This document shows positions 1-54,670 of a stretch of 64,000 nt of DNA, piece after piece. Made by a program: the position numbers and the translations under genes. Below the pieces are notes generated by a model, which worked only from the letters and a program-made list of their open reading frames with translations, had not been told where the DNA came from and did no database searches. How positions within the stretch are numbered: position 1 is the first letter of the stretch; every line of letters starts with the position of its first letter. Origin of the DNA: a virus (lineage: Duplodnaviria > Caudoviricetes); the IMG/VR virus record IMGVR_UViG_3300001525_000609, positions 1 through 64,000 of that record. One strand, given 5' to 3'.

Positions 1-66
1 ACTGCGGTCCGTTCTACGCTTACTTCGCCTATAGCGCTAGCCGCGCGAATGCGGTCCGTCCCTCCT
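1..66 (+). repeat. DGR variable repeat (VR), 3' part
   Basis: Aligns ungapped to 355-420. Mismatches at VR 21, 27, 28, 30, 42, 43, 45, 61 and 66 all lie opposite an A in the TR. Confidence 0.95.
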
Positions 67-77
67 ACCGTCTTTGA
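1..77 (+). CDS. 3' end of DGR target gene (probable C-type-lectin-fold receptor-binding tail protein), truncated by the window edge
   Basis: The frame starting at nt 3 reads CGPFYAYFAYSASRANAVRPSYRL then TGA (75-77) TAA. It is the variant copy of the TR at 355-420. Confidence 0.85.
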   Translation, partial: CGPFYAYFAYSASRANAVRPSYRL

Positions 78-96
78 TAAAGGGCAGCAAACAACC

Positions 97-144
97 GCGC
101 CAGTCAGCCGGAGGCGCTGGCGCATAAACAGGGGCGCAAGCCCC
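97..144 (+). promoter_or_regulatory. GC-rich hairpins downstream of the VR (candidate DGR target-recognition hairpin/cruciform)
   Basis: GCGCCAG(97-103)/CTGGCGC(117-123) stem, then GGGGC-GCAA-GCCCC (131-144) with a GNRA loop. The position matches the hairpin downstream of IMH in known DGRs. Confidence 0.65.
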
Positions 145-294
145 GCCTTCCCGTCGGGAGACCCCGGCGGTCTGTCGTATTGTTTAAATAAGATGACTTA
201 ATCCAGAGTATCATGGATACCACCTATATCCATGGGCGGTGCGGTAGACCGCGCGGCGTCCGTGGCTCGTTGTCCTTGGGTTTCTTCGCCGACA

Positions 295-420
295 ATGGCA
301 ATGTCAATGCCTCGAATTTCCCGAATGTCGGTGGCAACTACAACAACGGCACGAACTGCGGTCCGTTCTACGCTAACTTCAACAATAGCGCTAGCAACAC
401 GAATGCGGTCCGTCACTCCA
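295..420 (+). ncRNA. DGR template repeat (TR)
   Basis: AAC-rich template (translates as NGNVNASNFPNVGGNYNNGTNCGPFYANFNNSASNTNAV) directly upstream of the RT. 355-420 is the A-retaining copy of the VR. The 5' boundary is uncertain because the VR is cut by the window edge. Confidence 0.9.
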
Positions 421-613
421 TCACGCTCCATCCCTATCAGTGGGAACCCTTATGGGAACGCTTTTCGGCTTGGAGATCAGTCCGCACAGCCCCAGCTCTT
501 GCTGAAAAATCACGGTCGGACGAGAATTGCCGACTTTGCACCACATGCGGCTTTGGTACTCCCGGAATGGGCGAAGGAAGAAGACGCGGTGCAAAAATAC
601 GGAGGGTAGTCGA

Positions 614-1702
614 TTGAAGAGGATCGGGAACATCGACGGCGTGCCGTTGTTCGACCTTGCGTTGCGCAAGGAGAATATCATGGAGGCGATAGACAACGCA
701 TCCAAAGACCATGCCCACGATCCTCAAGTCATCTAGATGAAGGAGAACAAAGAAGATTGCGCATATTGGATTTGGCAAGAAATACACACAGCGGAGTTCC
801 ACTTTTCGAAATTCCGTTCAAGAGACATATACGAGCGCGGAAAGAAGCGCCACTTATGCTACACCGTCACCTTCCCCGACAGGGTCATTCAGCACGTCAT
901 CCTCCAGATTGTCGGACCCATCCTCTTGGGAACGAGCGTGAGGGACACATACGCCGCCCAGAAGGGCAAGGGCACGCACCTCTGCTCGATGAAGGTGCGC
1001 GAAGCGATCTACAACGACCCAGAGGGAACGAAATACTATCTTAAAGAAGACATCAAGAAGTACTTCGACAACATCCCGCGAGACATCCTCTTCAATCTTA
1101 TCAAGAGGAAGATAAAGGACCGCAAGATACTCAACATCATCCACGAGTTCATCTTCGGAGCGCCCGGGCGCAAGGGCTTGCCCATCGGCATGTATTCCAG
1201 CCAGATATTCTCGTCGTTCATGCTGACCTACTTCGACCATTGGGTGAAGGAAGTCCTGCGCATCAAGCACTGTTTCAGGTACATGGACGATTGGGTATGC
1301 TTCTCCAACAGCAAGGCCGCACTCCATCGCATCCATATGCTCGTCAAAGCGAAGCTCAAGGGGGATTACAGGCTGGAACCGAAGTCCAACTGGCGCATCG
1401 CGCCCACCGCCACGGGGCTGGACTTTGTCGGATACGTCCACTACTTCACGCACGTCCTACTGAGGAAGCGCAACAAGATACGCTACAAGAGGGTGTGCAA
1501 CCTTATCAAGCGCAACTGGCTCAAGGGCATCCCGCCGACCATCAATCAACTGGCGTCCGCACGCTCATACGACGGGATGGCGAGCTGGTGCGATGGAAAG
1601 AGACTAAGGCATTTAAACTACGGACAGATTATACAGACCTTGGGTAATCCATATGATACAACATGGAACAGTCAGGGGCACGCAGGCTGTGAAGCCTGCT
1701 AA
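614..1702 (+). CDS. DGR reverse transcriptase with an in-frame TAG at codon 41 (734-736); 362 aa if read through, 321 aa from ATG 737
   Basis: TTG at 614 follows GGAGG (601-605) and begins LKRIGN, the typical N-terminus of DGR RTs. Motifs FPDRVIQH, LKEDIKKYFDNI, GLPIGMYSSQ (GxxxSQ of DGR RTs) and YMDD are present. Confidence 0.9.
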
Positions 1703-7663: not shown

Positions 7664-8830
7664 ATGAAATCCTCTACACTTTCGATTACATTTGCGACCA
7701 TGGTGCTGGTCGCGGCCTTCGCAGGCATCATCGTCGTTGGTGAGGACGCTGACGCTGGTGATGCTAAGGTCCTTCAGTACACGGTCGGCACAACCGTTTA
7801 TTCTGAGACCGTCAACACCGACACCGTGATCCTCAAAGACCTCGCGACTCTGGGCTGCACTATGCCCGAAGGCAAGACCTTTAAGGGATGGGCCTCCGCT
7901 GATCCTGATAAGACTACTCCGACTACGATCTACAGCGCAGGCTCGACCTATGCGCTATCGACCGGGCTGACCCTGTGGGCGGTCGTCGAGAAAGTGACCT
8001 ATAAAGTTACATTTGCTTACGAAGATGGAACTTCTATCCTTGCTAAAGAGAAGCTTGAGTATGACTCCACTCTGACTCTCCCTGCTAAGGCGACCTCTGT
8101 CGCTGCTGGAAAGGTCCTGGAGTTCCGTCAGATTGACGGGCAGATCTTCATCGGATGGGCGCTTGCTGACGAGCCTGGGCTGGTCGTCATCGCCGCCTCT
8201 GAGAAGACCATCAAGGTCGTCGGCGACGCCGATTACGTCCCTGTCTACGCCCATGACCCCGTGCTGACCTTTATCGTCGACGGCACCCAGATCTACAAAC
8301 ACACCGAGTATGGAGCAGTCCTTCCGACCGCTCCCTCTAAAGACGGATTCAGCTTCGTCGGCTGGTCCGACAGCGAGATCACCATCCCTGATGCAGACCT
8401 TGCAACCTATGTTGCGATCCTCCTCGATGATGTCACCCTGACTGCTGTCTGGGAGCCTGCCGTCTACACCGTCACCTTCGTCGTTGACGGCGAGACCGTC
8501 ATGGTCCAGTCCGTCAAGCACGGGGATGTCGCCACTGAGCCCAAGTTCGTGCCTGCAAAGGACGGATACAGCTTCACTGCGTGGGCTGTCGACAACAAAG
8601 CATACGATTTCGCCTCTCCCGTGACCGGTGACATGACCATCACTGCATCTTTCGAGAAGACTCCTGTTCCTGCACCTACGGGGCTCAAGAACCCGACTGT
8701 TCAGATGATTCTCATCATCGTCGGAACTATCGTTCTTGCGCTTATTGCCCTGATGATCTGGAAGAGGGATGTTATCAGAGCTGCACTGGTCAAGAAACTT
8801 GACAAGGGAAACAATGGAGGGTCTGCCTGA
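7664..8830 (+). CDS. Membrane-anchored adhesin-like protein with InlB B-repeat (Listeria-Bacteroides repeat) domains
   Basis: N-terminal signal peptide ending ...VVGEDADA. Repeated YTVTF..DG...P.KDGYSF..W units. C-terminal transmembrane helix followed by a basic tail (WKRD). Confidence 0.8.
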   Translation: MKSSTLSITFATMVLVAAFAGIIVVGEDADAGDAKVLQYTVGTTVYSETVNTDTVILKDLATLGCTMPEGKTFKGWASADPDKTTPTTIYSAGSTYALSTGLTLWAVVEKVTYKVTFAYEDGTSILAKEKLEYDSTLTLPAKATSVAAGKVLEFRQIDGQIFIGWALADEPGLVVIAASEKTIKVVGDADYVPVYAHDPVLTFIVDGTQIYKHTEYGAVLPTAPSKDGFSFVGWSDSEITIPDADLATYVAILLDDVTLTAVWEPAVYTVTFVVDGETVMVQSVKHGDVATEPKFVPAKDGYSFTAWAVDNKAYDFASPVTGDMTITASFEKTPVPAPTGLKNPTVQMILIIVGTIVLALIALMIWKRDVIRAALVKKLDKGNNGGSA

Positions 8831-15768: not shown

Positions 15769-17748
15769 ATGAACGATGATGAGAAATGGGACGAGTTCAA
15801 ACGGAATTCGGCCCGTATCCAGAAGGCATCTGTTTCTGAGAAGCTCGATGCCATCGCTGCATCTCTCAACGCTATGCATGCTGATACGAGCCAGATTCCT
15901 AACCTCAGTTCCAAAATCATGGGCGATGAGGGGGCCATCGAGACTGCTAACAGTACAGCGATGGGCTCTCCGACGCCCGATGCGCCTCCTGATATGGGAG
16001 GCCTTGGAGATGAATCTATGAATACAGAGGATATGAACATGCCTCCTGCACCCGAAGATGGAACAGGTGCTGCTCCTGAGGCTCCTCCTGTCGGAGGCGC
16101 ACCTCCTAGCGCACCTGCGCCTGATGCGCCCCCTGTTGGCGGAGATATGGGCGACATGCCTGGTGCACCAGGAGCGCCTGAAAGCGAAGGGGATGACGAT
16201 CTTTCCGACGAGGATATCGAAGCCCTTCTCGATGAAATATACGGGGCGATGGATGGGAGTAAATCTGATGAAGCTCCGCCTGAACCTGCTATCGGCAACG
16301 CAGACCCAGAGGTTCCTGCAACGGGCGGTGCAGGGCTTGCAGATGCAGCCAACAATCTCTTGGCAGCGCTGAGACAAGCCGCGCATGAAGCTGTGGATGC
16401 AGACGATACGGGCAAAGTGATGGAGCTTATTCAGCTTGAGCAACAGCTCCAGCAGACCCTAGGGGGCATCACCGATCTGACTGAGCCCGATACTACAATC
16501 GGTCCTGAAGGCGATGCGGACTTGAGCGATGCAGGTGCTATGCCTGAAGACGAGGGTGCAGGAATGGCTGGCGCAGATGCGCTTGATGGTTTCGCGCCCG
16601 ATCTCTCTCCAGATGACCTTGGAGAAGCTTCAGATATTGCCGATGGTGCAGACCTCCCTCCTGAAGAAGGCGAATCCGAGCCTGCACCTGATGCCGATTC
16701 AGGTATCGACACCAGCTTGAGCAATCTTAGCAGTGATAGTAAAAGCGAGAAGGGCGACAGTGCGGAAGGAGATTCCAAAGAGAAATCTGCGGGCGACTCT
16801 AAGGACGACTCGAAAGATGATGATAAAGAATCCAAGGACGATGATGACGACAAAAAAGATGTCAAAAAGTCTGCGGATTGCGACGAGGACGAAGATTGCG
16901 ACGAACCTGAATCCGAAGATATCGATGAAATCATCAAGAAATCCATGATACCTCCCACCCCTTCATTCAAAGACATGATGGAGGGCAAATTCGATATGAA
17001 GTACTTCATGAAAGGCGATAGAGAAGGATATGTCGATGGGGACTTGATTTTCAAGGACCCGATGGTGGACAAAGTAGATATGGAGGGCATGCCCGATGGG
17101 TGCGGTCGCTATCTCGCCAAATCAGATGATCGTATTGCCACTGCCAGAGGTATCTTCGATAGGGAGATGATGACCGGATATACCGACCCTGACTCCATCG
17201 CACAGCCGAGGGGAGCCGAAGAAGCTCTAAGTCATACAGGTTCCACGAACCCTGAGGGGGTATCACAGGCAGACCGCATCATGGACATCAGGAAATCTTC
17301 TGATGACGACATAGCATCCAGTGGAACCGCACAGGAAGCACTCAGTCATACCGGCACAACCGACCCCGAGTCCGTTGCACAAGCAGAGCCAGCAATCAAT
17401 ATTGATGGCGGTGATGAATCGGAGGGGGAGACTGTTCAGAAATCTGAAGAGAACATCGCCCCTGCAATGGTCGAGCCTCCGAAAGCTGACGAGAACTCCA
17501 ACATCGCAAAGGGCCGTCATATCATGACGCTCAAGGAGATGATGAACGGCATCGCGACTTCACAGAGCAGGCCTTTCGCCAAATCCTCCGTATCGGGGGA
17601 GATATCTCGGCCTGAGTTGACTGCTGCTACCGAATTCCAGAAATCACAGAATCCGCCTGTCAGGATGGGACACGGGGTCGATCCCATGGATGTGATTAAA
17701 AACGATTTGAACGAGTACAACCTTTATAAGGCTAGGACTAAATTCTGA
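15769..17748 (+). CDS. Acidic, low-complexity scaffolding protein
   Basis: 659 aa rich in D/E/P/G/A, directly upstream of the capsid gene. Internal duplicated EALSHTG.T.PE.V.QA unit and many xxKS sites. Confidence 0.7.
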   Translation: MNDDEKWDEFKRNSARIQKASVSEKLDAIAASLNAMHADTSQIPNLSSKIMGDEGAIETANSTAMGSPTPDAPPDMGGLGDESMNTEDMNMPPAPEDGTGAAPEAPPVGGAPPSAPAPDAPPVGGDMGDMPGAPGAPESEGDDDLSDEDIEALLDEIYGAMDGSKSDEAPPEPAIGNADPEVPATGGAGLADAANNLLAALRQAAHEAVDADDTGKVMELIQLEQQLQQTLGGITDLTEPDTTIGPEGDADLSDAGAMPEDEGAGMAGADALDGFAPDLSPDDLGEASDIADGADLPPEEGESEPAPDADSGIDTSLSNLSSDSKSEKGDSAEGDSKEKSAGDSKDDSKDDDKESKDDDDDKKDVKKSADCDEDEDCDEPESEDIDEIIKKSMIPPTPSFKDMMEGKFDMKYFMKGDREGYVDGDLIFKDPMVDKVDMEGMPDGCGRYLAKSDDRIATARGIFDREMMTGYTDPDSIAQPRGAEEALSHTGSTNPEGVSQADRIMDIRKSSDDDIASSGTAQEALSHTGTTDPESVAQAEPAINIDGGDESEGETVQKSEENIAPAMVEPPKADENSNIAKGRHIMTLKEMMNGIATSQSRPFAKSSVSGEISRPELTAATEFQKSQNPPVRMGHGVDPMDVIKNDLNEYNLYKARTKF

Positions 17749-17758
17749 GGCAGATATT

Positions 17759-19063
17759 ATGAGCGGACAGTTCATTATGCAAAACGGTAAGATGACCACC
17801 ACTTACCCCGAGAAAGCGGAGGAGACGTGGAATCTTATCGAGGACTTCTACGCGAATCAATACCATTTCGCGAAGAGCGCAGGTGCGGCCGTCTACACTA
17901 CGGACCGCGAGAACGGATACACCAATGCGATCTATGGTAAATACATCACCGCAGGCATGTTCATGTCTGACAATGTGTTCACCGCACTCGGTGCTAAGCC
18001 GTATACTACCGAAGGAGTGAGGATCGCTACCGAGCTGGCAACATACGGTACTGTCACTGCCGAGGATATCGCAAGGGGCCTTACTGGATTCAACGAAGGC
18101 GATTTCGTCGGAATCGGAGCCACTACCGTCCAGGACGGGCGCATCCCCGGAAGCGTCAGGATGCCTGTCTCTGAGTTCAGAGAGCCTGCAAAAGAGATGC
18201 CTCTCAAATTCAACTACGGTCAGTATCTGGCTGCTATCGAGAACAAGGACGATGTCATTGCTAAGAAGGATTATCTGGACAAGATCTCCAAAAACTTCTC
18301 CGATCTGGTCGATAAGACCATCCTCAGGCACATCGAATGGAAGCAACCCGTCTATGAGGGCGCTGAAACTTCGCTCAATGCCCTGTCCAGGATCATCTCT
18401 GCGAACTCTGAGATCGGAAGGACTGTCGATGGAGTCACTCTTGATGCTGGAATGATCTCGCCTTATGGCGGACTCACAGCGTCTCGCGGAGATTTCTACA
18501 ACTTCCGTGCCAATGGACCTAGCGTTCTCGATTCCCAGGTCATCGACCTTGGAGGGGACAAGGTTCTGAACCTTAATGCCATGAGGAAGCTGTACAGGCA
18601 GTGCTCTGTCAATTGGGCAGACAGTGCTAATCCGAACAACAAGCTCTGGATCATGTCTAACATCGCCCAAGATAAGCTTGCAGCGCTTCACGAGGCGAAC
18701 CAGATCCAGCTGAACACCGTATATGTGCAAAGGGACTTCAATGGAGTCAAGACCATCCCTGGAAGAGACCTTGGACTTGTCGTCAGTTCCTACAACAAGA
18801 TCCCGATCATCCAGGATGGAAACCTCAATTACGATTACTCGAAGAAGAGGGTTTCTGACGTCAAGTTCGGAGACATCATGCTCGCAGATCTTGACCACGT
18901 ATGGATATCCCTGCTGAACCCCGTCAACCTTCACTCTGTGAACAACCCTGCCATCACCGACATCCTCCAAGAGATCAATGTCGTCCACATGAGGGCAGAG
19001 GTCAGGTGCGATGGATTCATCGGCAGCGGAAAGATCGTCGGAGTTCTCGACGACACCGTTTGA
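17759..19063 (+). CDS. Major capsid protein (HK97 fold inferred)
   Basis: 434 aa following protease and scaffold, with N-terminal FAKS site. The call rests on position, size and composition. Confidence 0.8.
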   Translation: MSGQFIMQNGKMTTTYPEKAEETWNLIEDFYANQYHFAKSAGAAVYTTDRENGYTNAIYGKYITAGMFMSDNVFTALGAKPYTTEGVRIATELATYGTVTAEDIARGLTGFNEGDFVGIGATTVQDGRIPGSVRMPVSEFREPAKEMPLKFNYGQYLAAIENKDDVIAKKDYLDKISKNFSDLVDKTILRHIEWKQPVYEGAETSLNALSRIISANSEIGRTVDGVTLDAGMISPYGGLTASRGDFYNFRANGPSVLDSQVIDLGGDKVLNLNAMRKLYRQCSVNWADSANPNNKLWIMSNIAQDKLAALHEANQIQLNTVYVQRDFNGVKTIPGRDLGLVVSSYNKIPIIQDGNLNYDYSKKRVSDVKFGDIMLADLDHVWISLLNPVNLHSVNNPAITDILQEINVVHMRAEVRCDGFIGSGKIVGVLDDTV

Positions 19064-19071
19064 AGCTAAAA

Positions 19072-19087
19072 GAGGGGCGGGCCCCTC
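19072..19087. terminator. GC hairpin at the convergence of capsid and HNH genes
   Basis: GAGGGG-CGGG-CCCCTC followed by a T-run. Confidence 0.55.
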
Positions 19088-19092
19088 CCCCC

Positions 19093-19536
19093 TCAAACTT
19101 TTTTCTTTACGGGCGTTTTTATAGCATCTTCAACAGACCAACCGTCATCGATACGATGGATTATTGTCGATGAAGATATCCCGTACAATCTGCTCCATTG
19201 TGCCAATGTTTTGATGTGCCCATCTACGACATAATATTTGGCTGTGGTGCGGTTGTTCGCCTGAGCTTTACGTGACACCCAGCGCAAGTTCGCAGGATAG
19301 TAGCCTTTCTTATTGTTGATCCTATCGAGTGTGAGGTCATTCCTATACCCATGTGCGATAGCCCAATCATAGAATGCAAAGAAATCCTCATGCCACTCTT
19401 CGCATACTGTTATGCCTCTTGCACCATACTTGCCATAATCTTTGCATGAAGTGTTGAAACACCGCTTATTCATGCTACGCCATATCTCCCTCAGCCGTTT
19501 GTATTCAGGAGATGCCGTATCATATTTTTCTGTCAT
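19093..19536 (-). CDS. HNH homing endonuclease
   Basis: YGARGITVCEEW...LTLDRINNKKGYYPANLRW...QANN with a C-terminal HTH-like segment. Confidence 0.9.
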   Translation of the reverse strand: MTEKYDTASPEYKRLREIWRSMNKRCFNTSCKDYGKYGARGITVCEEWHEDFFAFYDWAIAHGYRNDLTLDRINNKKGYYPANLRWVSRKAQANNRTTAKYYVVDGHIKTLAQWSRLYGISSSTIIHRIDDGWSVEDAIKTPVKKKV

Positions 19537-36311: not shown

Positions 36312-36667
36312 AAATATATCCGAATAGTTGAACGATTGCTCAAGTGTTGTCGGGGCGGTCTCTTAATCTTAGACAGAAGTGGTAATGTTGGTCGGTATAG
36401 GAAAAATAGAGTGCCCCTGTCCGTCCCGAGGACGGTTTTCAACACGTCTAATGTAACAAAAGCGGCATTACACGACCATTACAATGGATGTATCTTCCAA
36501 TACTGTTTATGCCCGAAATAATCCATGATATCAGTATACTGGTCACGATTTTTGTGTTTTAGGCTCTCCGAAACCAATAGAGCGCGATCGTACCCTCTTG
36601 CCCTAAATCGCCATTACGAAATTCGTAGAAAACTCTACGAAACCTCGCAAACAGTATTTAAAGAGCC

Positions 36668-36925
36668 TTACAAAATTACATTACCCTTACATATCCGATG
36701 TAATGCATATTTTTGTACAACTATTTATAGGGTTTAAATAGTCCCTATTTAAACCCATAGTATCTATTTCTAAGAATTACAGGAATTACATCATTTAAAA
36801 AGATTAGAAAAAAATAATGAAAAATAGAGGGATCGTGAGAAAACTCCCTCTTATACGCGCGTACACGCGCATGCGCGCACGCGCCTTCTAGTCTTTCCGA
36901 CGAAAATATGTAATTTTGTAATTTA
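36668..36925. repeat. AT-rich iteron element, copy 1
   Basis: Homologous to 54335-54560. Contains TTACAT-N5-ATGTAA, tandem AATTACA boxes, inverted TGTAATT boxes and a 12-bp hairpin at 36730-36756. Confidence 0.75.
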
Positions 36926-46491: not shown

Positions 46492-46876
46492 CGCATCAGA
46501 TACAATCCGACGCTTTACGTATCTAAGACTCCCGTAGGCGCCTTTTTGTCATGACGTTGTACACGTCACACGACTGGCCACTGTATGTCGCGGTTAGGGA
46601 TATATACCCTTCGGTCAATCGGCACAAAATGTATTACATATGCTACGGCCCCGGTATCCCTGCTCGGCCCGCGATCGCGCGCGTGGATCGGGCGCGTCCG
46701 CATACACGTCATGCGTGTGCAGTACCTGCCTATGTGACCGCGATACGGGCCTACCCCCGGGTATAGAAATGAGGGGGTCGATGTTCGTCACGGCTGTCAA
46801 CTCCTAATCTGTATACCGTCATACCTATATACTGTCAAACCCTCACCCGTTCTGAGCGCACAGCTCATGTGATAAC

Positions 46877-47623
46877 ATGGAATTCGAATGGACAGATGCG
46901 ATGGCGACCAAGACCGATGCGGCGAAGCTCTCTGCGATGCTCTCGGCCGTGTCGTCTCAGACCGACCGCGTGAACGTCGCCATCGGAGCCGACGGCTCTG
47001 TGACGGTGCGCGCGGTCTCCCCCGACCACGTCACGATGGTCGGGATCGATGCGGAAGCAGGCACGGTGATGGGTATTTGCTCCCCCGTGTCGTTCGAAGC
47101 GGACGTGAACGCATGGCTTGCCTTCCTCCGCAGGTGCAAAGGCGACGTCGCTATGCTCTGGCTCGGCTCGTCGGCGGTCCAGCTCAGATGCCGTGGCGTC
47201 AGCGCCGTCCTGCGTCTCGACCCTCCCGGCCCCGATGTGCGCATACCGTCTCTGAGCCTTGAGGACCAGTGCGTGTTCGACCCTGCCGTGCTGAAGGACA
47301 TGGCGGCCCTCGTGCCCAAGTCCAGCGTCGCGTACTGGCGCATGTCGCTCACGCCCTCGGGCCTGAACGTGTCCGTCCGCGACGATACGGGCACAGGCCC
47401 CGGCGCAGAGCTCGCAGCCGGCGACATGGACCTCTGCGACGTCCCCTCGGGGCAGGCCGAAGCATCGTTCCCCCGCGAGAGATGGACCGACGTGCTGAAG
47501 GCCCTTCCTTCCGGCGCGATCGGATTGGAGCTCGGCAACGACTATCCCTGCCGCGTGACGTTCGGCGGTGTCGGATGGAGCGGGCAGTGGATGTGCGCGC
47601 CCATCATAGAGTCGAGGCGATGA
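46877..47623 (+). CDS. pcn: PCNA-like DNA sliding clamp
   Basis: 248 aa with VSPDHVTMV, interdomain IPSL, LELGNDYPCRV and C-terminal MCAPIIE, matching the PCNA D.SHV.LV, L..DYP and LAP.I motifs. Confidence 0.85.
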   Translation: MEFEWTDAMATKTDAAKLSAMLSAVSSQTDRVNVAIGADGSVTVRAVSPDHVTMVGIDAEAGTVMGICSPVSFEADVNAWLAFLRRCKGDVAMLWLGSSAVQLRCRGVSAVLRLDPPGPDVRIPSLSLEDQCVFDPAVLKDMAALVPKSSVAYWRMSLTPSGLNVSVRDDTGTGPGAELAAGDMDLCDVPSGQAEASFPRERWTDVLKALPSGAIGLELGNDYPCRVTFGGVGWSGQWMCAPIIESRR

Positions 47624-47624
47624 C

Positions 47625-47846
47625 ATGAGAGGCGCGCAGGTGAGATGGTGCGAGCGCTGCGGGAAATGGTACAGGGCCGATGAGAGAGACCTCAGGACCT
47701 GCACCGTGTGCGGGCAGGTCCAGCTGGAGTACAGATGCTATCGTTGCGGTCGCAGGTGGACGCCGAAGAAGGAGTCGCCCAAGACGTGCCCTAAGTGCGG
47801 AAGCCCGTATTGGGACCGCGCTAGGGTGATGACCGATGAAGAATGA
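47625..47846 (+). CDS. Double zinc-ribbon protein
   Basis: CERC..CTVC and CYRC...PKTCPKCGSPYW. Confidence 0.75.
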   Translation: MRGAQVRWCERCGKWYRADERDLRTCTVCGQVQLEYRCYRCGRRWTPKKESPKTCPKCGSPYWDRARVMTDEE

Positions 47847-49270: not shown

Positions 49271-49531
49271 TTTAAATATCAGTCGGGACATATAAGGTAC
49301 GTCTTGGGACCTCTTGTCTTGTCGGGCGTCATTCACAGCGGGGCCTGCTCCCTTCTAGGGGGCGGCGGGCCCCGTCACCTCTTTTCATACCTGTCATAAT
49401 CGTTATATAGGGCGTTATCGATGTTAGTCCGCCTTCAGGTAAGGTCGGATCGCATCTGTTCCGGGTGCGATTGGGGTTCAAAGGCGGCCCCATTCGCGCC
49501 ATTTTTATATCCTCATACTGTTCGGCATGGC

Positions 49532-54560: not shown

Positions 54561-54670
54561 GGCAGTACAATCTGTCATTTATATACACGAGTCCATCAAT
54601 GAACAATAAGATGCATTGGTTGGATCGCCATTCGGGAAAATTACTATAACGCCCGATCCGATGCTCTATC

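Follow-up and report, generated by a model that had tools for sequence, protein, structure and literature searches.

The first lines of the window (the whole stretch of DNA that was analysed, 64,000 nucleotides long) carry a locus that is, in our assessment, very probably a functional diversity-generating retroelement (DGR). [quoted passage not shown] Its most unusual feature is a conserved in-frame TAG codon in the RT gene, which is likely to be read through as pyrrolysine.

The window begins at base 1 of its source contig, which is 82,622 bp long. Terminase, portal and tail genes are present, in agreement with the earlier description of a tailed virus; circular permutation of the genome and the position of the DGR in the tail module are the best explanation of the contig as a whole. 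The VR is split over the two contig ends, with the 31 nt between its parts (matching TR 324–354) unassembled, and the assembly is broken at the VR in two independent contigs. Such breaks could be the expected outcome of population-level heterogeneity of the VR, and confusion of TR and VR by the assembler could equally have produced them. Elsewhere in the window, an ORF at 46865–47704, considered as a possible PCNA, had no Pfam match.

To our knowledge, prokaryotes and their viruses have no natural means of hypermutating proteins in a targeted way other than DGRs. In archaeal viruses, DGRs have been known since 2015, and a 2023 compendium of methanogen viruses in Nature Microbiology reportedly describes their enrichment in viruses of gut methanogens. 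The element itself is unsurprising, the same type of cassette being present in the published vir215 genome. As far as we know, hardly any virus of a gut methanogen has been brought into culture, and a clean, well-delimited cassette is useful for that reason. The present one comes with six close relatives, a target family that counts at least 120 clusters and confident structural models for the RT and the target, and provides defined parts for asking how a DGR without Avd functions in an archaeal context. The odd feature that could repay work is the UAG conserved in the RT.

Template and variable repeats

The TR spans positions 285–419 (plus strand; 135 nt) and contains 36 adenines and 14 AAY codons. 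Positions 1–65 of the window (plus strand), forming the 3′ part of the VR, match TR 355–419 without gaps and with eight mismatches, all at TR adenines. The 5′ part of the VR consists of the final 39 bases of the contig (82584–82622; L001 18584–18622), which match TR 285–323 apart from four further mismatches, in each of which an A of the TR is replaced by T. The aligned positions number 104, of which 25 are TR adenines, and all 12 mismatches are located at these adenines (hypergeometric P = 3 × 10⁻⁹). The first-pass annotation had aligned VR 1–66 with TR 355–420 and counted nine mismatches; eight of them lie in 1–65/355–419, whereas the ninth, 66/420, marks the edge of the homology. Its statement that every mismatch stands opposite a TR adenine holds throughout, and the extension of the alignment to the other contig end brought no mismatch at any other base.

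The VR makes up the last approximately 45 codons of the target gene. Read in VR frame 3, the changes from TR to VR convert AAC to TAC (Tyr), AAC to CGC (Arg), AAC AAT to GCC TAT (Ala, Tyr), ACG to GCG and CAC to CCC, as had been described for the asparagine codons (Tyr, Ala, Tyr, Arg and similar). Stop codons are unreachable by adenine mutagenesis of the TR, whose 14 AAY codons and eight single-A codons together allow about 10²¹ protein variants and never a stop. The homology of the two repeats ends past a GC-rich stretch (VR 50–65, TR 404–419), beyond which they diverge; an IMH at the 3′ end of the VR and a differing IMH* at that of the TR, the pair that sets the direction of transfer in DGRs, may be located in this part.

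The same pattern is repeated in six related IMG/VR viruses with the same cassette, where 124 of 125 mismatches are located at TR adenines (16/16 in L003, 20/20 in L004, 22/22 in L005, 19/19 in L006, 22/22 in L007 and 25/26 in L013). In six genomes, comprising this one and five relatives, the VR is distinct in each and carries 12–22 changes at adenine sites. Together with the match of the RT to that of the Bordetella DGR, this recurrence bears out the DGR signature recognized in the first reading of the sequence. A search of metagenome contigs with a degenerate pattern spanning the junction returned no further copies of this lineage, and a shorter pattern gave one chance match, in unrelated DNA of 71% GC. 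An ORF at 213–617, in which the TR is included, was not accepted as a gene, since it owes its lack of stops entirely to the coding sequence that the TR copies, and past the TR the covariation is of the RNA type.

The reverse transcriptase and its in-frame TAG

The RT gene (611–1702, plus strand) consists of 363 codons including the in-frame TAG. Its product matches RVT_1 and belongs to phrog_1423 (E = 1.3 × 10⁻⁸³). The best PDB sequence match is Bordetella bRT (8ub7, E = 1.4 × 10⁻²⁸), followed by group II intron RTs (E = 9.5 × 10⁻¹³), and the NCBIfam models for group II, retron and DRT RTs all score far under their cut-offs. The structural model (pLDDT 93) superposes on 8ub7_A with a Z score of 35.7 and an r.m.s.d. 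of 2.2 Å over 325/328 residues; for group II RTs the Z score is approximately 30. By sequence and fold matches, the RT is closest to those of DGRs. The GxxxSQ and YMDD motifs of the first-pass annotation were both located: the IGxxxSQ motif (IGMYSSQ; 1184–1204, plus strand), which is motif 4 of DGR-type RTs, aligns with IGSLTSQ of bRT, and the YMDD catalytic motif (1280–1291, plus strand) was read from the sequence and the bRT alignment.

The only DGR to have been investigated in detail cannot do without Avd. Here, neither Pfam nor NCBIfam gave a match to it, PF05635 being absent across the whole contig at E values up to 1, nor did any other accessory gene (HRDC, MSL or CH1) emerge, and no ORF fits into the VR–TR or TR–RT gaps; the ORF that follows the RT also occurs in the DGR-less virus vir335, with 75% identity. 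The element had been called complete, which is correct for its core parts, but it has no Avd, its RT needs read-through of a TAG and the contig ends interrupt its target gene. The order target–TR–RT without Avd is a known minority architecture. It corresponds to Architecture A of Wu et al. 2018 (PMC5758913), a TR–RT core without an accessory gene, which the present element resembles in layout. In that set, which is without methanogen-virus elements, avd is found in 74% of DGRs, and the accessory-less class comprises 75/372, reported as 29% (PMC5758913).

The RT frame starts at 611, not at 737 as first annotated, and its TAG (734–736, plus strand) is codon 42, a candidate pyrrolysine codon. A GGAG ribosome-binding site precedes 611 in six of six genomes (this one and five relatives). 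The TAG is kept in this genome and in five of the six relatives, the RTs of which are 69–76% identical. Synonymous codon changes flank it on both sides, and purifying selection acts on the 40 preceding codons (omega 0.00–0.16 where computable). RT homology continues across the TAG, which falls in the middle of a helix (residues 38–45) in the confident RT model; the next codon is ATG in each of the six genomes. In relatives whose frame is unbroken, this site is occupied by R, K, A or M. The RT gene is not a pseudogene. As five of six relatives keep the TAG and the codons before it are under purifying selection, reading of the UAG as pyrrolysine is likely, judged from these sequence comparisons.

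Two other readings of the TAG were weighed. If it inactivated the RT, the differences between VR and TR would be relics of past activity of a fossil element. Such a reading starts from the stop in frame at codon 42, from the gene callers, which place the protein start at the Met after the TAG (P0121–P0131), and from vir335, a relative without a DGR that has a frozen VR-like tip. It is nevertheless highly improbable, given that the TAG is common to six genomes with the divergence and the synonymous flanking changes described above, that the upstream 40 codons are both constrained and preceded by a conserved ribosome-binding site, that the two halves of the RT frame are open and modelled as a single bRT-like chain, and that each of the six genomes has its own VR. 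Alternatively, the RT could consist of two polypeptides, a 41-residue N-terminal peptide and a 321-residue body restarting at the ATG at 737, with no read-through. The TAG-then-ATG arrangement in all six genomes, the conservation of both parts and a virus that encodes neither a suppressor tRNA nor Pyl machinery would fit this arrangement, which we consider unlikely. No ribosome-binding site is present before 737, and the Met or Ile that follows the site is ancestral, being present in relatives with unbroken frames, and therefore is not a newly evolved start. The position of the TAG in the middle of a predicted helix, and the outgroups' sense codon at the site, mostly for R or K, which resemble pyrrolysine, also argue against a division of the chain here. 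In addition, gut Methanomassiliicoccales of the ‘Ca. M. alvus’ type seldom use UAG as a stop, doing so in 1.6% of genes, and 16 extra predicted Pyl proteins, including Cas1, have been listed for them (PMC4153887).

Read-through as pyrrolysine, the preferred reading, would have a consequence for the host range of the mutator. Without UAG decoding by the host, the RT would be missing its first 41 residues. That the DGR RT of this clade is a pyrrolysine protein, that its full length needs host Pyl-tRNA, and that hypermutation takes place only in UAG-decoding hosts (gut Methanomassiliicoccales) is a wider claim, for and against which we see about even chances. Were it true, hypermutation of the tail tip could rise and fall with the pyrrolysine supply of the host, and a viral mutator would be tied to an unusual feature of the host genetic code. 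In the literature that was searched, pyrrolysine is not reported from any viral protein or reverse transcriptase.

Genome-wide TAG statistics from crude ORF lists are unreliable, as at least one shadow ORF is among the entries, and no quantitative claim on TAG use is made. The shadow ORF, a ‘TAG-ended’ frame of 452 residues at 17738–19096 (minus strand), lies over the capsid gene and was rejected.

The target tail protein and the host

The 3′ end of the target gene occupies positions 1–77 (plus strand, frame 3), with the stop codon TGA at 75–77. The rest of the coding target is located at the other end of the contig; the gene starts at contig position 80988, is interrupted by the contig ends and lacks the 31 unassembled nucleotides. 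Its product of approximately 580 residues belongs to phrog_5302, ‘tail protein’ (E = 9 × 10⁻³⁸), and homologues in at least 120 clusters have C-termini that vary at AAY positions. Pfam and NCBIfam searches of the target gave no real match and the PDB sequence search returned only chance antibody light chains; a fold search was needed because sequence-based naming had given nothing.

The structure was modelled on P0001, a full-length homologue 94% identical to the target product (pLDDT 89.6). It consists of two Ig-like sandwiches followed by a C-type-lectin domain. Residues 267–579 of the P0001 model match TaqVP (5vf4_C) with a Z score of 21.1 and an r.m.s.d. of 3.1 Å over 254 residues; Mtd (1yu3, 1yu1 and 1yu4) is matched with Z scores of 9.0–9.3. 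The matched lectin domain is C-terminal and ends in the VR. On this structural evidence, the C-terminal domain of the target is predicted to have a C-type-lectin fold, as the first-pass annotation had guessed from the class of TR. As the variable residues belong to a C-type-lectin domain of the kind seen in TaqVP and Mtd, the modelled domain is likely to be the varying ligand-binding tip of the tail protein.

The ligand is presumably a host receptor. The diversified domain might instead bind something else, such as gut mucus or another type of glycan by which the virion is retained. No ligand is apparent from the fold, Ig-like domains such as those of the target are widely suggested to mediate weak adherence to glycans, and the target gene, which follows five genes of the opposite strand, is set off from the main tail-gene run. 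This second possibility is nonetheless quite unlikely: the family is annotated as a tail protein and the gene is found among tail and baseplate genes, and Mtd, the founding example of a DGR target, is a receptor-binding protein. In the large survey of Roux et al. 2021 (PMC8144416), viral DGR targets were mostly tail proteins tied to host attachment.

The host is most plausibly a gut methanogen of the Methanomassiliicoccales, a reading for which the grounds are kinship with viruses whose GenBank records give this order as the host, the TAG conserved in frame and the TATA-like boxes. Forty-one of the 101 ORFs have homologues in vir335, arranged in colinear modules, and the GenBank host of vir335 is Methanomassiliicoccales; vir215, which has the same host label, contains the same target and RT families. 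The conserved TAG occurs in a virus without a suppressor tRNA of its own, and a UAG-decoding host would therefore be needed. TATA-like boxes are enriched in intergenic regions, with six TTTAWATA sites in the window versus 0.97 expected, all of them intergenic. Against this, several matches point to a bacterium, for example one of the gut Bacillota, in which case the element would be an ordinary gut-phage DGR. A scan of 185,579 species genomes gave a single match, to a contig of 4.3 kb that had been assigned to a ‘Lachnospiraceae bacterium’ bin; TerL is equally close to Bacillus and Staphylococcus phages (45–48%) and to vir335; the closest named relatives of the RT are chromosomal RTs of Flavobacteriia, with approximately 40% identity; and a Flg_new repeat protein resembles Bacillota proteins, its matches in the ESM Atlas being generic Bacillota repeat proteins only. 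However, the ‘Lachnospiraceae’ contig is short, has a GC content of 57%, contains no RT and may be mis-binned, and with the colinear modules, host labels, TAG and TATA-like boxes on the other side a bacterial host appears very unlikely.

RNA elements and comparison with known retroelements

Two hairpins are located downstream of the VR. Hairpin 1 (97–123, plus strand) starts 31 nt after the VR. Its GC-rich lower stem of 7–8 bp shows covariation between relatives, its GCC/GGC upper stem is invariant and its loop is a GGA triloop; it is present in six of six aligned genomes and in vir335. Hairpin 2 (131–144, plus strand; GGGGC-GCAA-GCCCC) lies 65 nt from the VR and consists of 5 bp closed by a GCAA loop; four relatives have GCAA or GTAA as the loop, and L006 has GCA. 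Hairpin 2 is the GNRA hairpin seen in the first-pass annotation, which had missed the more conserved hairpin 1. The consensus for phage DGR hairpins is a stem of 7–10 bp with a 4-nt GRNA loop, 4–34 bp from the VR (Guo et al. 2011, PMC3240598), and neither hairpin fits it, hairpin 1 having a triloop on an interrupted stem and hairpin 2 a stem of 5 bp. Both also occur in vir335, which is without TR or RT, and may therefore be ordinary terminators.

A TATA-box-like sequence, TTTAAATA (183–190, plus strand), is a candidate archaeal promoter of the TR–RT transcript; in five relatives such a box is positioned 97–116 nt upstream of the TR. It is followed by two stem-loops (213–233 and 236–252; region 213–252, plus strand), at what is predicted to be the 5′ end of the TR RNA. 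The positions of both are conserved, the stem sequences of the first differ by lineage, and the core of the region, GGCGG...GTAGACCGCG, is conserved. Between TR and RT lies a structured spacer RNA (420–610, plus strand), ending in a GGAGG ribosome-binding site before 611. The spacer is more conserved than the adjoining coding DNA and shows compensatory changes in 11 of 41 predicted pairs; a search of positions 1–2400 against Rfam found no family at E values up to 1.

We infer that the element is currently active and that homing would proceed as follows. Transcription would start behind the TATA-like box, giving an RNA that carries the two 5′ stem-loops, the 135-nt TR, the structured spacer and the RT frame. 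The RT would be translated from the Shine–Dalgarno-preceded start at 611 through the UAG at codon 42, and would copy the TR into cDNA, misincorporating opposite adenines. The cDNA would then replace the VR, which makes up the final codons of the gene for the tail protein; the GC-rich 3′ end of the VR and the hairpins just downstream would probably guide this step.

Among the closest known counterparts is Caudoviricetes sp. vir215 (BK063676.1 / NC_092586.1), a virus of gut Methanomassiliicoccales that comes from the compendium of methanogen viruses and is labelled with the host given for vir335. It shares the order of tail protein (phrog_5302), TR and RT (phrog_1423), with no avd in either virus, and the VR at its target 3′ end differs from the TR at adenines, as judged by eye. 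However, its RT is only approximately 37% identical to the one described here and has an unbroken frame with no TAG, its genome measures 37.7 kb as opposed to 82.6 kb, and its VR is of a different sequence class, ending in ...GARLAFVFDL. An archaeal tailed virus with a tail-fibre-like lectin target is also represented by ANMV-1 (Paul et al. 2015, PMC4372165), which is drawn with an Avd gene that is absent here. The nanoarchaeal (DUSEL4) DGRs have hairpins with GRA triloops (PMC4372165), and hairpin 1 has GGA. The habitat of ANMV-1 and DUSEL4 is the marine subsurface, whereas the present virus is from the gut.

The BPP-1 DGR (mtd-VR, avd, TR, Sp, brt) has an RT whose fold is matched from end to end. 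Both elements have the IGxxxSQ and YMDD motifs, a TR that is rich in AAY codons and whose copy enters a tail protein gene at its 3′ end, a C-type-lectin target, a structured TR–RT spacer and a GC-rich inverted repeat after the VR; spacer 420–610 is analogous to the Sp region of the BPP-1 DGR RNA. They differ in that BPP-1 has avd, whereas the element described here has none and contains a TAG in its RT, and its hairpins lie outside the rule of a 7–10-bp stem with a GRNA loop (PMC3240598). The target lectin domain is closer to TaqVP of Thermus aquaticus (PDB 5VF4), its best structural match, than to BPP-1 Mtd, although the sequence identity to TaqVP is only 15%. TaqVP is a cellular protein and the target a viral one, which, unlike TaqVP, adds two N-terminal Ig-like or transthyretin-like sandwiches (residues 41–210).

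A variable repeat divided between the contig ends

The 64,000 bases of the window are the first part of one 82,622-bp contig, which IMG/VR classes as linear and for which CheckV estimates 98% completeness. The window start falls inside a repeat. Positions 1–65 (plus strand), repeated at 355–419, are the 3′ part of the variable repeat (VR), and the final 39 bases of the contig (82584–82622, plus strand), which align with 285–323 of the template repeat (TR), are its 5′ part. The two halves sit at opposite contig ends, and 31 bases corresponding to TR 324–354 are absent between them. The contig ends with a whole codon (...TTC CCG) and the window opens at the second position of a codon; the 31 + 2 bases missing at the junction make up 11 codons, the homologue in vir335 (BK063680.1, a published Caudoviricetes genome) has 11 residues there, and the frames match. 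Because the contig ends span the VR and the frames agree over the gap, the genome is evidently circular or circularly permuted despite its ‘linear’ label, the assembly having broken within the VR. Assemblies break at the VR in two independent related viruses: here, with 31 nt lost inside it, and in the related IMG/VR contig 3300045988_182039, whose ends overlap exactly by 113 nt (L004 1–113; L014 4981–5093), ending on the base that precedes its VR.

Over 104 aligned positions the VR and TR (285–419) differ at 12, all of them among the 25 TR adenines (hypergeometric P = 3 × 10⁻⁹). The nine mismatches that the first-pass annotation had described in the 3′ part of the VR are reproduced if position 66/420, on the boundary of the homologous stretch, is included, and no mismatch in the 104-position alignment lies away from adenine (0 of 12). 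Six related contigs, retrieved from IMG/VR by their reverse transcriptase (RT) or target, each carry their own VR/TR pair with identical spacing. Mismatches fall at TR adenines in 16/16 cases in L003, 20/20 in L004, 22/22 in L005, 19/19 in L006, 22/22 in L007 and 25/26 in L013. A single metagenome yielded L003, L004 and L005; among these, identity is 96–98.5% for the TRs, 81–94% for the flanks and 79–83% for the VRs. The 36 adenines of the TR are distributed over 14 AAY and 8 single-A codons. A stop codon cannot arise by substitution at any of them, and approximately 10²¹ proteins are computed to be reachable. The rest of the contig showed no second VR. The diversity-generating retroelement (DGR) proposed at 1–1702 is confirmed and enlarged, and its earlier interpretation is supported.

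The diversified tail protein

The coding target was found to begin near the other end of the contig: the gene starts at contig position 80988 (plus strand), crosses the junction and ends with a TGA at window positions 75–77, with the VR at its 3′ end. It belongs to the tail region, with tail-related PHROG matches in the genes on either side, and this region and the vir335 tail module are colinear. Sequence libraries describe the product only as ‘tail protein’ (phrog_5302, E = 9 × 10⁻³⁸), and Pfam and PDB sequence searches gave no match. At least 120 homologue clusters were found in a large protein collection, the closest among the matches listed being P0001 (579 aa, 94% identical, with the same N-terminus). 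The C-termini of the family keep a fixed frame, roughly F-A-D-x-G-x-V-x-x-S-x-F-P-x-V-G-G ... C-G-P-F-x-A-x-F ... A-V-R-P-S-Y-R-L, in which the variable positions are the AAY codons of the TR.

A model of P0001 predicted from 57 sequences (pLDDT 89.6) contains two sandwiches, Ig-like or transthyretin-like, at residues 41–210. Residues 267–579 superpose on the Thermus aquaticus DGR variable protein TaqVP (5vf4_C) with Z = 21.1 and an r.m.s.d. of 3.1 Å over 254 residues, the next row scoring 10.5; Mtd, the variable protein of Bordetella phage BPP-1, scores 9.0–9.3. On the predicted model these fold matches therefore bear out the C-type-lectin assignment guessed at first. Short forms of 380–450 aa, approximately half of the family listed (P0048, P0062–P0115), cover only the C-terminal 61%, comprising the middle and lectin domains, and the Ig-like module at the N-terminus is thus optional.

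Composition and non-coding elements of the cassette

The VR–TR gap is approximately 210 nt in every relative, and no ORF for the accessory protein Avd fits within it; neither was an Avd-like ORF found elsewhere in or beside the cassette, nor a PF05635 match in the contig. The ORF that follows the RT (1653–2093) was rejected as a cassette member because vir335, which lacks a DGR, has a gene matching it at 75% identity. Wu et al. found avd in 74% of DGRs and describe the bare TR–RT core as a sizeable minority class (75/372, given there as 29%; PMC5758913), to which the present element belongs. DGRs that act on tail proteins are common, 31,007 DGRs being recorded from metagenomes with viral targets that are mostly tail proteins bearing C-Lec VR domains (PMC8144416), and DGRs in archaeal viruses have been known since 2015 (PMC4372165).

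Two conserved hairpins lie 3′ of the VR (DNA fold z = −3.1). Hairpin 1 (97–123) starts 31 nt past the VR; its lower stem is GC-rich and shows compensatory changes between lineages, and its invariant core, AGCCGGAGGCG, pairs GCC with GGC around a GGA triloop. Hairpin 2 (131–144) reads GGGGC-GCAA-GCCCC. Phage DGR hairpins have a consensus of a 7–10-bp stem, a GRNA tetraloop and a distance of 4–34 bp from the VR (PMC3240598), and GRA triloops occur in nanoarchaeal DGRs (PMC4372165). Of the two, hairpin 1, which begins 31 nt from the VR and has a GGA loop, is the stronger candidate for a target-site signal. In vir335, which has neither TR nor RT, the homologous gene is likewise followed by both hairpins, and they may therefore serve as terminators instead.

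A TATA-like box, TTTAAATA (183–190, plus strand), keeps its position in five relatives, and two stem-loops (213–252) lie between it and the TR. It is of the TTTAWATA type, of which the window contains six sites where 0.97 would be expected, an approximately six-fold excess; all lie between genes and are candidate archaeal TATA-box promoters. Where a downstream gene is clear, the boxes (also at 36655–36753, 49271–49278 and 54578–54585) share its strand. The 190-nt spacer between the TR and the RT is more conserved than the surrounding coding DNA, shows compensatory changes in 11 of 41 predicted pairs and has no match in Rfam; by analogy it presumably corresponds to the spacer RNA of BPP-1, by which cDNA synthesis is primed and controlled, and would have that role here.

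The genome of vir335 (83,070 bp, circular, from baboon faeces, host field ‘Methanomassiliicoccales’) matches 41 of the 101 ORFs of the present virus in colinear blocks, with TerL 47% and portal 51% identical. Its target homologue (54% identity) has a VR-like tail and is followed by both hairpins, but approximately 1.5 kb equivalent to window positions 152–1649 is missing, a cassette either lost or never gained. Without TR and RT, vir335 retains in its tail gene a DGR target that is orphaned or frozen; the VR-like C-terminus (L010 27640–27864), rich in Asn, Tyr and Asp, adjoins the exact site that the 1.5-kb cassette occupies here. In vir215 (BK063676.1), which carries the same host label as vir335, the order is that of the present virus, a phrog_5302 tail protein followed by TR and a phrog_1423 RT, with differences confined to adenines, although its RT is uninterrupted where that of the present virus bears a TAG. 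This kind of element was therefore already present in a published, publicly available data set.

An in-frame TAG in the reverse transcriptase, and the host

The ORF at 737–1702 matches RVT_1 and phrog_1423 (E = 1.3 × 10⁻⁸³), and homology to the BPP-1 enzyme bRT (PDB 8ub7, E = 1.4 × 10⁻²⁸) begins 21 codons past a TTG at 611 and crosses a TAG at 734–736 (plus strand; codon 42) unbroken. This TAG is kept in six genomes, the present one and five relatives with RTs 69–76% identical (L003, L005 and L006 3998–4000; L004 905–907; L007 2678–2680), among which the neighbouring codons differ synonymously. Omega for the 40 codons upstream is 0.00–0.16 where computable, and in 6/6 genomes the start at 611 follows a ribosome-binding site of the GGAG type. 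L013 has ATG at the position, and more distant relatives, with a single unbroken frame, have R (14), A (7), K (4), M (3) or a few others. In a 363-residue model with the TAG read as K (pLDDT 93), residue 42 lies within a helix (38–45), and residues 1–342 superpose on bRT with Z = 35.7 and an r.m.s.d. of 2.2 Å over 325 of 328 residues, ahead of group II intron RTs (Z ~30).

An intact RT requires UAG to be read. Gln-TTG is the sole tRNA encoded by the virus, and no suppressor tRNA was found in its genome. In ‘Ca. Methanomethylophilus alvus’, just 1.6% of genes terminate at UAG, and pyrrolysine is predicted in another 16 proteins, Cas1 included (PMC4153887); in a host of this kind the simplest reading is therefore read-through as pyrrolysine, and codon 42 is likely to be a pyrrolysine site. 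The main alternative is an RT made of two chains. The element's single conspicuous feature is this conserved UAG. After the TAG, the frame runs for 305–439 codons among close relatives (L003, L004, L005, L006 and L007), continuing into the next gene in L003 (4001–5320); in the window it overlaps the following ORF by 50 nt (1653–1702).

Kinship with vir335 and vir215, the UAG and the TATA-like boxes together make an archaeal host very probable. Bacterial affinities of the RT, TerL and a Flg_new protein point the other way, as does a short contig from a ‘Lachnospiraceae bacterium’ MAG that carries a short form of the target. This 4.3-kb contig (CAVHQB010000136.1) has a GC content of 57% and is for that reason probably a mis-binned viral fragment; its target (L008 765–1859) lacks the Ig-like N-terminal domains and has a diversified ...AVRPSYRL tip, with no RT nearby on the contig. 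The nearest named RT relatives outside the virus clade, at approximately 40% identity, are chromosomal RTs of Flavobacteriia (for example Chryseobacterium, Elizabethkingia and Epilithonimonas; P0170, P0172, P0182 and P0199), a hint from sequence that the cassette may derive from the bacterial DGR pool rather than from an archaea-specific lineage.

The Flg_new protein (7664–8830, 388 aa) contains Listeria–Bacteroides repeats, an adhesin-like type noted for gut microbes, and is encoded between the head genes and the terminase. A 452-aa minus-strand ORF (17738–19096) is a shadow of the plus-strand major capsid gene, its vir335 counterpart lying opposite the annotated capsid gene; it ends in TAG-x-TAG and would distort counts of TAG stops.
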